IMG/VR virus record: IMGVR_UViG_2551306674_000013
Strand: one strand, 5' to 3'
Origin: a virus
Taxonomy: Duplodnaviria; Heunggongvirae; Uroviricota; Caudoviricetes
DNA: 19,629 bases
This document shows, one piece after another, positions 3,001 to 6,000 of this stretch (position 1 is its first letter; the number at the start of each line of letters is the position of its first letter). The position numbers are program-made.

Positions 3001-6000
3001 GCTCTATTTGTTTGTTTTCGCCTTCCAGGCGGTGACCACGTTTACGGTAGTCGCCATCAACAGCAATCAGGTATAGGCATTTATGACTGTCAGCCCGCCA
3101 GCGACGTGGCGGAAGTTCCCCCAGGCATGACAGGATAATATTGCGTACGATCTCCTGCATCCCGGCGTCATTGATATCGCAGTCCAGAGCCACCACCCCG
3201 TCGCCAGTACGAACGCAAATACCGTAATCGGGTTCGTTCGACCACCGGGCAAAATCGTTTTCCGTAACAACATAGTTAGCCCAGTCGGGGATACCAACAA
3301 CCTTACGTTGGCCATTGTAGCGACTGGGAGTTTTGCCGAAATTATGAGACAGCTTGCTATTAGGCGACAGTTCTGCACAGGGATTGGACACCACAGGTAA
3401 AAGCCTGTCTGTCATCCCCAACACCAGATCGAAGTGGAACCACTCATCGGGCGTAGCTCCCCATGGTTTGTTATCAGACATGGGTTACGCCTTTTGTCTA
3501 GCTGTCACTTCCTGAAAAAGCTTTTCTATCGCACGTACTGTAGAAAAGCGAGGGTCAGAATGAACCCCGGTGAGAAGCCGACTAATAGAAGACTGCTTCA
3601 CGCCTGCAATTTCGGCAATTTGGTTTTGGGTATACCCTGAATCAATCAAGCTTTTGACCATCTCTTGTGGTGTTAGTCCGGACATATTTAAGTCTCCACT
3701 TTCGTCTATAGCGCAAATTTATACGAAAACGGATTATTCAGCAATACAGCAATTCTATGTCATCCTGGATTAAAATATCCGATAACGCATAATCACCGTC
3801 CCTGTATACAACATGGATGAATCCAAATGATTGATACTACCGATATCCTTTCTCAAAACATCAAGTACCTGATGGACAAAGCCAAGATAAGCTCGATAAC
3901 TGAGCTGGCACGTCGGTTACAGCTGAACCAACCAACGCTACACAGGCTGGTATCAGGAGAGGTGAAAGATCCGAAATACGCAACGTTAAAGCAGATCGCC
4001 GACTACTTCCACGTGTCACCAATAGACCTGGCAGAAAGGAGCCTTCAAGAAATGGAGAAAGAGGACGCGACAGGTATAAAAACGTATATTTCTCTTAGGT
4101 TTAATAAAGTACCTGTTTTGGGAAACACTCAGCTAGGCGTAGGAGGACTTTGGAGCGACACCCAATATTCAGTAGGTAGCAGTGATGGTTTCATATACTG
4201 GCCGACAAAGGATGAAGATGCATACGCCCTGAAATGTGTTGGTGATTCAATGATGCCTAGAATCAAAGAGGGTGAGTTCGTAATCGTCGAACCCAACCAC
4301 GACTACACTCCTGGTGATGAAGTACTTGTGGTTACCCAGGACGGTGAGGTCATGGTTAAAACCTTCTTGTTCGAACGCGATGGCCTGTTCCATCTAATGT
4401 CTGTAAATGAAGATCATCCACCAGTCAGAGTACCACGCGAAAACATTGAAAAAATCCATTACGTGGCGGGGATCGCCAAATCCGCGCTACGCATGTACTA
4501 ACCTTTACAGTCTGATAACTTACTTCTGATCAAACCGCTCTCCACAAGGGCGGTTTTCTTATTTGCAAAATAATTCATTTTCGTATTGACACAAAATCCC
4601 ATAACGCATATAAATACGATATCGCATAATTAATGCGTTTTTTAATACCAGCTCTTTAACAAACTGAACCGCGTGACAGGTAAGCCGCAGTACTCCTGGC
4701 AAAATGAAATGGCACCCGATGGGATCGAGGTAAGCGCCGAGTCCGTATGCGTACGGTAAGCGTAGAGGACAACACCGCGACGAACTGATAAGTCACGCAA
4801 GTTGAAACGCCCCGACGATGGGGCGCTTAGTTCCTTTAACTCTGGGTGGCCGGAAAGGTACCCATGCTTAAAGAAATTACTGGTTGTAAGGATCGTAATC
4901 CGTGATTGCCTTCCCCGGATTTTCATCTTCAGCAGGCAGTCTGGCCTCTAAAGCATTTCGGTTGAACAGATAGGAAGCCCTACAGTGCGAACAAACCATA
5001 TTAACGGCTCGCCCAAGGCCTGGCTTAATAACCAGACCTTCCGCTTGCAATATAGATTTTCTCTTTTGCTCGTAGCAATTGGGACAAATATAAACCGGAG
5101 ATTGGTCAGTATCTGCAGAAAGCTTGCTGCGATAGACCAGAGTACCCCGCATAGGCTGGTAAAGTTCATAGCTCGCCGCTTCAGCGGCCCAGTTCTCTTG
5201 CTTTACTTTCTCATTTTCCAGTTCAACAATTTTCTCCTTAGCCGCAATCAGCAGCTCCTGAAGCGACATTTGCTGCATCTGAACATCCATTAGCTTATCG
5301 AGTAAGGTGTGCGTCTTCTCTTTAACTGCATAGTCGACAGTCAGATTCTGAATCTCTCTTGCTGCTCCAACCGCGCCTTTAATTGCTCCTCCCACGCCGG
5401 ATAACGATTCAGTTATCCGGGAAAGAATTCCTTTTTCTTCAGACATATCTAATCTCTCTCAAACTGTAGGGGTGAAGAGATATTAGACGATTTCTCACTG
5501 TAGGGGTACAAGGAGAACCACCTCGCCTGATGTGGTTAAAAGCAGGCACTCGATGATATCCATGTAATTGCTGTGTGTAGTCTTTGCCCGCCGCAAATGA
5601 CGGGCTTTTTTATGTCTGAAAGCGCACTCGCAACAGCGCGCTCCCCGATATGAAAAAAGGAATACAACCGATGAAACCTGAACACCTCTATCGACTGACG
5701 GGGCGCGATGTTCTCCGTTATCGCCGTAAAAACTTCGATTTGATGACCGGTCTGGCCGTTGCCACTGCGCTCGGTCTGATCATCACTTTCATTCTCCTTG
5801 TAGCGAGGACCACAGTATGAGTTTAGAAACCAGTCTCGAACTTAATAATCAACTTCTGGCACAACATAATGCGCTGCTTGAACGTCTTATCCGCACAATG
5901 GCATCAGGTATTGTTATGCATCCTGACACGATTTCACGAGTGCAGGAATGTCGGGATACAGCAACTGAAACTGAAAATATGTCAGCGGCAATGACACTGG

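Follow-up and report, generated by a model that had tools for sequence, protein, structure and literature searches.

A conserved boxA-led leader RNA, a Rip1 homologue and an RprA-like terminator open the early-left operon of a temperate Escherichia phage

Four modules in the immunity region

The immunity region of a tailed phage (Caudoviricetes; IMG/VR record IMGVR_UViG_2551306674_000013) was analysed within a stretch of 19,629 nucleotides (nt), hereafter the window, with attention to the interval from 4502 to 5613. This interval follows the gene of a cI-type repressor (3827-4501, plus strand; Pfam Peptidase_S24, 1.3e-18, and HTH_26, 3.7e-12), which marks the immunity region, and it lies in the position of PL-nutL-N-sieB in lambda. 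We found that it comprises four separable and independently mobile modules that open the early-left operon, namely an early promoter, a structured leader RNA, a convergent gene for a homologue of the defence protein Rip1 (ring interacting pore 1), and an RprA-like module at an intrinsic terminator. A preliminary description of this DNA, made from the sequence alone, had listed a cI terminator, a promoter (4586-4614), a leader, a minus-strand gene with upstream repeats and a distal terminator. All of these features were present where it had placed them, but the interval is not the one RNA-plus-protein module that it had proposed, and it had overlooked the boxA with which the leader begins, the PsieB homology and the RprA-like nature of the terminator. 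The protein and its promoter are of known kinds; neither the family of the leader RNA nor the RprA-like module of the phage seems to have been described before.

Directly 3′ of the repressor gene, a terminator scan identified the intrinsic terminator of the cI transcript on the plus strand (4532-4556), with a 10-base-pair stem and a T-rich tail. The PL-type promoter that follows on the same strand consists of TTGACA (4586-4591), a 17-nt spacer and TATAAA (4609-4614), and was skipped by a consensus scanner because the scanner demands T at the final -10 position. Operator-like repeats surround this promoter (4563-4637) and are also present in the cro/cI intergenic region. Copies of one repeat family (D1) were found by the repeat search at 3774-3791, 4593-4610 and 4611-4628, and in a 24-nt inverted repeat (I1) positions 3721-3744 pair with 4563-4586; the palindrome CGCATAATTAATGCG at 4623-4637, listed as a hairpin, also falls within the operator-like zone. 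Given that these repeats are held in common with the cro/cI region, the promoter was taken to be a repressor-controlled early promoter, and the leader should thus be repressed in a lysogen, not expressed from the prophage as had been proposed. The Escherichia phage vB_EcoM-606R2 is 99.8% identical to the window, and matching prophages occur in many E. coli chromosomes. Its GenBank record annotates a 47-residue hypothetical protein (URC08718.1) at 4559-4702 on the minus strand, which overlaps the promoter, the operator-like repeats and boxA and is very likely a spurious call on the regulatory region.

A structured leader RNA that begins with boxA

The leader RNA (4650-4827, plus strand) was detected by its covariance model as a single copy in the window, with 219.9 bits. 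At its start stands a boxA, GCTCTTTAACAA (4651-4662, plus strand), the sole exact copy in the window; the same 12-mer occurs in the K-12 rrnH leader, there 132 nt upstream of the 16S start. The leader boxA is an rrn boxA of the consensus type, and NusB-NusE binding to it is predicted. It is followed on the plus strand by a multi-helix domain of approximately 130 nt, formed by helices P1 (4671-4677/4792-4798), P2 (4686-4692/4773-4779), P3 (4714-4720/4724-4731), P4 (4735-4738/4758-4761) and P5 (4743-4747/4752-4756), and then by a GC hairpin, P6 (4808-4813/4820-4825). All six helices were drawn by eye from the differences between sequence classes. The hairpin at 4808-4825 had been noticed before, as a leader end shared with the 3′ end of the convergent gene; it is part of the conserved RNA element and not just the end of that gene. 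The earlier statement that the leader lacks open reading frames (ORFs) longer than 13 codons was nearly right, although the plus strand holds a 28-codon GTG ORF (4673-4759) and the minus strand holds ORFs of 46, 47 and 94 codons. A protein-coding leader was rejected because the classes differ by 1-nt insertions or deletions, which would shift the frame of the plus-strand ORF.

In total, about 160 loci carry the leader element, and they fall into five sequence classes. A blastn search with 4560-4880 matched 104 of 5,426 complete E. coli genomes, class 1 alone accounting for about 100. The sets used below are 104 loci of classes 1 and 2 and 57 loci of classes 3 to 5, or 161 together; other hosts of the element are Citrobacter, Pseudocitrobacter and the Enterobacter phage ENT1. 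A 23-nt probe from the middle of the core, which excluded boxA, retrieved 84 IMG/VR contigs, and a boxA-like [CT]T[CT]TTTAACAA lay 5′ of the core in all of them. Two more probes brought in the diverged classes. A contig scan with the pattern GTGACAGGN{10,18}CCTGGCAA was too loose: of the 120 loci that it gave, all but 2 (from Citrobacter and Pseudocitrobacter) were false. Classes 1, 2 and 4 retain boxA, as do most members of class 5.

The boundaries of the element are set by its changing neighbours. Some genomes retain 4560-4837 with a diverged downstream gene, the match stopping at P6 where the downstream genes differ, and in genomes with a different repressor and promoter the match opens exactly at 4651, which is boxA. 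The minimal common core is 4651-4825, from boxA through the GC hairpin. That the matches end at boxA on one side and at P6 on the other indicates that the leader is an independent, mobile unit. A leader of 85% identity was also found in two true lambdoid prophages (our loci L009 and L010), which carry gam, bet and exo and have no annotated N gene. The covariance model found one leader copy per locus in 100 loci, and a scan of the window for a second (nutR-like) copy with all filters off gave none, the next-best score being 13.6 bits. Among 82 distinct upstream regions, 54 had promoter-like sites (at least 9/12) within 135 nt 5′ of the element, compared with 27 of 410 control windows; the -10 elements of these sites end 18-81 nt before boxA, and in most loci a cI-like gene is upstream on the same strand as the leader. 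Many class 1 loci (e.g., L008, 4180-4225) also have a short terminator-like hairpin, AAAGGCTTCGGGCCTTTT, within about 20 nt after P6.

The structure was examined in three alignments. In a plain MAFFT alignment of 61 distinct sequences (A5), 92.7% of cells were paired and compensatory changes occurred at 11 of 36 pairs, compared with 5.0 ± 1.2 in shuffles (0 of 500) and 1-4 when the register was slid. The two model-fitted alignments, which are biased towards the proposed structure, gave 93.4% paired cells and 16 of 36 compensatory pairs for 68 distinct sequences (A6; shuffles 6.3 ± 1.5, slid register 1-4), and 93% paired cells versus 71.8% when shuffled, with 32 of 36 compensatory pairs, for 29 distinct sequences from all five classes (A10; shuffles 22.7 ± 1.4, 0 of 500; slid register 4-8). 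Independent of model fitting are the MAFFT result and the replacement of whole helices: class 3 swaps all of P1 from GCGTGAC/GTCACGC to AGCAGCAAATCA/TGATTTGCTGCT, and P1 of class 4 is GCATGAC/GTCATGC. The G-U pairs are seen on the plus strand, as expected of a transcript read from it. Between the helices, the unpaired stretches CCUGGCAAAnnGAAAURGC and AGAGGA are near-invariant. The folding energy of the single leader sequence was not unusual (z = +0.43), nor was that of the RprA-like region (z = +0.50); folding energy was thus uninformative for both, and covariation was needed. RNAalifold, applied to the near-identical class 1 sequences, returned a partly different consensus with one covarying pair only; its helix 94-97/120-123 is not preserved in class 2, so P4 and P5 were used instead. 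A covariation ranking of isolated pairs was dominated by phylogenetic structure and was discarded. Taken together, the leader is a conserved structured RNA with strong covariation support.

In an Rfam scan of the whole window at gathering thresholds, only a C4 antisense RNA was found and nothing at the leader; a permissive Rfam scan of 4450-5700 likewise gave no match on the leader. No paper was returned when the literature was searched with core sequences from the leader and the RprA-like module, and the leader RNA family appears to be undescribed. Three loci (L057, L092 and L101) carry deletion variants, in which 26 or 50 nt are gone between GGTAAGC direct repeats in the leader. These deletions take out P4/P5 or P2/P3, and the variants may be defective copies or may point to dispensable domains.

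The Rip1-family gene, the RprA-like terminator and the operon beyond

The convergent gene (4877-5446, minus strand) encodes a 189-residue protein with a CxxC...CxxC pattern, as the preliminary description had stated, and belongs to phrog_1244. Its residues 3-166 matched PDB entry 9oox_L by phmmer (E = 8.5e-48), and a profile search gave E = 2.1e-66; by tblastn the protein was 52.4% identical to HK446 gp37, which is Rip1. An AlphaFold2 model (predicted local distance difference test score, 72) showed helices at 7-34 and 39-90, then a beta-rich CxxC...CxxC domain, and its top Foldseek match was 9oox_M (E = 5.6e-11, target TM-score 0.89). The entry 9oox is the cryo-electron microscopy structure of phage HK446 Rip1 with the T6 small terminase. 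Pfam, NCBIfam and PADLOC gave no match for the protein, and PHROGs lists phrog_1244 as function unknown; the PADLOC-DB used is dated 2023 and predates the description of Rip1. The Rip1 family comprises 3,351 cluster representatives at E ≤ 1e-3. The protein is a Rip1 homologue and so a member of a known family, not an undescribed one as had been supposed, and ring-triggered pore activity is predicted for it.

Rip1 is a prophage-encoded single-protein defence whose family was described in 2026 (Patel et al. 2026, via the review PMC13434031). As summarised in that review, 12 Rip1 subunits ring the 11-mer small terminase of an infecting phage, or the portal serves as the trigger, and a pore forms that leads to premature lysis (PMC13434031). 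The window protein resembles Rip1 of phage HK446 and of a Pseudomonas prophage in fold, in length class and in the succession of N-terminal helices and a C-terminal beta-rich zinc-ribbon region. The genomic slot and orientation are also the same: HK446 gp37 lies between N and the anti-restriction gene ral on the opposite strand, that is, in the sieB slot, and the window gene stands alone in this slot with its own PsieB-type promoter. It differs by some 25 extra residues at the C terminus, where the model has low confidence, and the window phage, a myovirus with a DNA-polymerase replication module, is of another type than HK446. The slot beside cI thus holds a defence gene, as the preliminary description had anticipated, and this gene is likely expressed in the lysogen. 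In other prophages, a gene for an "ECs_2282 family putative zinc-binding protein" lies convergent after the leader (4559-5011, minus strand, in L009 and L010, and in 16 class 3 loci). This protein was considered and is not a Rip1 homologue (hhalign probability 2%); it may be another exclusion gene at the same hotspot.

The promoter of the Rip1 gene (5473-5510, minus strand) has the -10 element TAATAT (5485 to 5480) and, by homology, a start near 5473. The repeat search (D8) confirmed that the direct repeat ACTGTAGGGGT noted earlier upstream of the gene occurs in two exact copies, at 5463-5473 and 5497-5507. Within them, the CTGTAGGGGT repeats occupy the +1 region (5464-5473, with the start at its end) and the -35 region (5498-5507). 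At 83-87% identity, 5464-5549 matches the sequence that precedes sieB in lambda, P22 and many lambdoid prophages. In P22, the identity to the window block is 86%, and NC_002371 annotates a "sieB promoter" and a "sieB RNA start site" on the aligned bases. This homology indicates that the repeat-flanked promoter is of the PsieB type and drives a different exclusion gene. Lambda SieB itself, searched by tblastn, matched nothing in the 104 loci, the window included.

Past the -35 element, the alignments with lambda and P22 continue through a conserved block, GAGAACCACC..GCCTGATGTGGTTAAAAGCAGGCAC (5511-5549), which on the PL-sense strand can fold into one or the other of two incompatible hairpins and for which no annotated function was found. 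Its equivalents lie at 34395-34440 in lambda (L003, 3040-3105) and in our P22 locus (L115) at 1548-1586. The window therefore shares with the sieB locus of P22 and lambda the promoter block with both CTGTAGGGGT repeats, a convergent gene, and an early transcript antisense to the exclusion gene. It differs in coding for Rip1 instead of SieB, and neither an Esc-type internal start nor a sas RNA was identified. In P22, the antisense RNA sas controls sieB (PMC12197685), and by analogy it is plausible that early-left antisense transcription silences Rip1 during the phage's own lytic growth.

Beyond the Rip1 promoter lies the RprA-like module (5566-5611, plus strand), which consists of AATTGCTGTGTGTAGTCTTTGCCC, a stem at 5586-5590/5601-5605 and a T6 tract. 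The stem rests on the centroid fold and the Rfam alignment. It bears out the plus-strand terminator that had been placed at 5586-5613, which the terminator scanner missed owing to its 10-nt loop. The region 5502-5615 aligned to RprA (RF00034) with 50.2 bits against a gathering score of 70 (E = 4.7e-5), and five sister loci scored 50.8-56.4 bits for the same family. Across AATTGCTGTGTGTAGTCTTTGCCC, 24 nt are identical to K-12 rprA, and the terminator is similar. The sister loci carry the CTCCCA terminator loop of RprA too, and some retain ATCCCCTGA further upstream. Only the 3′ half is convincing, because the RprA 5′ part of the Rfam alignment has low posterior probability and mismatched pairs; the missing half includes most of the rpoS-pairing region. 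As the score is below the family threshold and the 5′ half is lacking, we call the module RprA-like and not a member of the family.

Among 101 loci, 64 have the RprA-like core 3′ of the leader. From the leader end to the RprA-like terminator the distance is 45-50, 175-335 or 593-742 nt, the last being the arrangement of the window, with the Rip1 cassette inserted. In the lineage with the replication module, the first operon gene starts about 40 nt after the terminator. The module is conserved well beyond the need of a terminator, and no dedicated promoter was seen for it. Terminator-derived small RNAs are known from phages, namely StxS and PreS, the latter an Hfq-dependent RNA made at the terminator tL2a of the lambda PL operon, which offers a precedent; like PreS, the RprA-like module sits at an intrinsic terminator in an early-left operon. 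It departs from host RprA in its score (50 versus 70 bits) and in a 5′ half that is missing or partly kept, and it is a candidate small RNA only. This phage RprA-like module appears to be undescribed. The Pas small RNAs and the mEpimmI Nus-dependent phages, candidates from the literature, proved unrelated to the locus.

The first gene of the early-left operon (5650-5820, plus strand; phrog_11981) encodes 56 residues with a hydrophobic C-terminal half. It is followed by genes for a 300-residue protein, HNH, DUF2800, DUF2815, DNA polymerase, a TIR protein, VRR-NUC and a helicase. The HNH gene is a NUMOD4/HNH homing-endonuclease gene (6722-7240, plus strand) between the 300-residue gene and DUF2800; its position is empty in vB_EcoM-606R2 and strain BCE049 and occupied in strain JNEC-KY176, and it is probably a mobile insertion. 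Between the DUF2815 and DNA polymerase genes lies the C4 antisense RNA (RF01695; 9343-9426, plus strand; 70.6 bits, above the gathering score), which suggests a P1/P7-type C4-controlled module in this phage. The TIR-domain protein (13111-13872, plus strand) matches the PADLOC candidate defence system PDC-S35 (E = 7e-109) and, inside the replication operon, would be a second defence gene of the phage. On the other side of the repressor gene, a cro-like gene (3685-3485, minus strand) is followed on the same strand by a primase/DUF5906 gene, 3′ of which related records have Q, lysis genes and terminase genes.

Antitermination and other explanations for the leader

The genes downstream of the leader form two unrelated sets, either the 56-residue/300-residue/DUF2800 replication module (63-75 of the 104 loci, with a homologue of the 56-residue first gene in 75) or lambdoid recombination genes. 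Homologues of lambda N or P22 gp24 were found by tblastn in 1 of the 104 class 1 and 2 loci, and none of lambda N, P22 gp24 or HK446 N was found in the 57 loci of classes 3 to 5; conversely, the N-bearing loci of lambda, P22, CFT073 and O157 gave no match to the leader covariance model. An operon that lies behind a strong terminator needs a way through it, and a control element that tolerates an unrelated insert of 45-742 nt would act processively and not by a local hairpin switch. Together with the consensus boxA, this makes Nus-linked processive antitermination nucleated in cis the best-supported mechanism. The evidence thus favours the alternative that the preliminary description had offered for the leader, a cis-acting antitermination element. 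Reasoning from sequence and its conservation, we give about an even chance to the four-module explanation as a whole, in which the leader RNA would bring about processive antitermination in cis, in conjunction with Nus factors.

According to this explanation, the early promoter would be silent in a lysogen under repressor and would fire on infection or induction. The nascent transcript would show the consensus boxA first, as a NusB-NusE site, and would then fold into P1-P5 and, after them, P6. Helped by host Nus factors but not by N, boxA and the fold would modify in cis the polymerase that transcribes them and render it termination-resistant. The modified polymerase would then cross approximately 750 nt of untranslated RNA antisense to Rip1, where Rho would act, and would also pass the strong RprA-like intrinsic terminator to reach the replication genes. 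In the lysogen, the Rip1 homologue would abort other phages by sensing their small-terminase or portal rings and forming a pore, whereas in the phage's own lytic growth early-left transcription would run antisense through the Rip1 gene and probably lower its expression. Transcripts that halt at the RprA-like terminator would end as an RNA like the processed 3′ half of RprA, possibly a small RNA of the Hfq type.

The leader resembles lambda and P22 nutL in lying about 30 nt after the early-left start, in its 5′ boxA, and in the terminators and convergent sieB-slot gene downstream. However, it has no boxB-type hairpin and no helix with a lambda-type pentaloop. Its domain of 130 nt with five covarying helices contrasts with the 15-nt boxB, its boxA is the full rrn consensus compared with the weaker lambda form (the P22 nutL boxA is GCTCTTTAAC), it occurs once where lambda and P22 have nutL and nutR, and an N homologue accompanies it in 1 of the 161 loci. 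The closest mechanism proposed is that of HK022 putL/putR, also a cis-acting folded RNA straight after the early promoter in a lambdoid phage without N, and a similar action is predicted here. The HK022 put RNA is about 70 nt long, forms two stem-loops, occurs twice per genome and is Nus-independent. The leader, in contrast, is approximately 178 nt long, single-copy and boxA-led, and HK022 has no consensus boxA. The leader covariance model, run on 26-31 kb of HK022 (its immunity region), gave at best 11 bits on the wrong strand, which is not significant, and a blastn search with the leader against 50,697 phage records did not match HK022. With the E. coli rrn leader (boxB-boxA-boxC; NusB/E/A/G, SuhB, S4) it shares the identical 12-nt boxA and a long untranslated leader that needs protection from Rho, whereas it adds a folded domain of its own, and by eye no similarity extends beyond boxA.

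Several observations weigh against antitermination by such an RNA. The bias of the fitted alignments and the ordinary folding energy given above are among them. In class 3, the most numerous of the new classes, boxA is degenerate (GCTCATTAAGAA). There is a single leader copy per phage region, without a nutR or putR counterpart. The RprA-like core is absent from classes 3 to 5, whose loci were not surveyed for other terminators. Complexes of the rrn boxA type are known to act against Rho-dependent and not intrinsic termination, and they are not known to defeat strong intrinsic terminators; read-through of the RprA-like terminator would thus require an additional activity of the folded domain. 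N proteins are also very diverse, so that tblastn with three N queries could miss a phage cofactor, and one locus (L108) has a lambda-type N gene 3′ of the element. In that locus (1100-2300, minus strand), the N gene begins about 550 nt after the leader element and encodes the arginine-rich motif MDARARRRERRAEKQ; a lambda-type boxB is found nowhere in the 6.8 kb of the locus, and lambda nutL is absent from the N leader there.

An alternative that we consider unlikely, although it fares best among the rivals, is that the folded domain is a stable trans-acting noncoding RNA made early in infection, which might inhibit a host defence or host factor or act as its decoy, or might make up the 5′ body of a longer small RNA ending in the RprA-like module, with boxA merely shielding its synthesis from Rho. 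In the minimal arrangement, the leader, 47 nt and the RprA-like terminator would add up to one discrete transcript some 300 nt long; P6, a GC hairpin, lacks a U-tract, which would suit a 3′ end that is processed and protected; the single-stranded stretches given above are very strongly conserved; and Hfq-bound small RNAs are produced from the lambda PL operon. Nevertheless, the element always stands in an operon leader and never free, a cassette of approximately 750 nt parts it from the terminator in the window and 19 other loci, and classes 3 to 5 lack the RprA-like end. A trans-acting RNA would also leave unexplained how the replication operon is transcribed through the terminator.

More doubtful still is the reading of the leader as a nut site for a phage antiterminator protein that is encoded elsewhere and has escaped recognition; boxA would recruit NusB/E, and the phage protein would bind one hairpin as the equivalent of boxB. 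The order of boxA and then hairpins is that of lambda and P22 nutL, where in P22 GCTCTTTAAC is followed by the boxB hairpin. L108 shows that an N gene can accompany the element, 819 nt from its start, and N-like proteins are too diverse for reliable detection by tblastn. But no protein is common to all contexts, the two carrier lineages having entirely different downstream genes, and the first ORFs do not encode arginine-rich disordered proteins: the C-terminal half of the 56-residue protein is hydrophobic, and the 115-residue protein of ENT1 is acidic. Furthermore, no hairpin of the element has a GNRA-like pentaloop, the element occurs once per locus, and a 130-nt domain with five covarying helices far exceeds what a boxB would be.

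It is improbable that the leader works like a riboswitch, sensing a metabolite, an ion or a host protein to gate early-left transcription and thereby to influence the decision between lysis and lysogeny. A multi-helix junction, invariant unpaired nucleotides, a position in a 5′ leader and, in many loci, a terminator after it would suit such a sensor. However, the distance of 45 to 742 nt between leader and terminator, which can hold a whole gene cassette, rules out a local antiterminator/terminator switch, no alternative pairing with the terminator was seen, and boxA would have no role.

The main reading of the preliminary description, in which the prophage expresses the leader RNA and the 189-residue protein as a single new accessory or defence module, can hardly be right: the two are adjacent and convergent, and P6 could end the minus-strand transcript, on which TTTCAACTT follows it, but leader and gene move independently, the leader occurring with other immunity regions and other downstream genes, a Rip1 homologue accompanies the leader in only 20 of the 104 loci, HK446 Rip1 follows an N gene (the leader model was not run on the HK446 locus), PMC13434031 describes Rip1 as one protein that is both sensor and effector, and the operator-like repeats at the leader promoter should keep it off in the lysogen.

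Returning to cis-acting antitermination, we put forward, tentatively and at somewhat less than even odds, a more specific form of it. The leader would join HK022 put and Bacillus EAR as a third type of RNA-based processive antiterminator. In it, a consensus Nus-binding boxA would be fused to a folded domain, and the two would stand in for N in temperate enterobacterial phages of at least two lineages that are unrelated to each other. One of these lineages would couple it to a terminator that also serves as a phage-encoded RprA mimic, so that stopping or reading through would yield a host-directed small RNA or the replication operon.

Processive antitermination by RNA only, or led by RNA, is known from very few systems. 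If the proposal is true, the leader would provide a new and easily tested model of how a nascent RNA and Nus factors reprogramme RNA polymerase, and it would show how lambdoid and other temperate phages do without N. The element is common yet unannotated, and it is sometimes overlaid by spurious hypothetical ORFs. The identification of Rip1 allows this prophage gene and many hypothetical proteins of phrog_1244 to be annotated as a characterised abortive-infection defence. The RprA-like module, finally, suggests that a portion of a core small RNA of the stress response is copied by phages, and it extends the recent picture of terminator-made small RNAs drawn from PreS and StxS.

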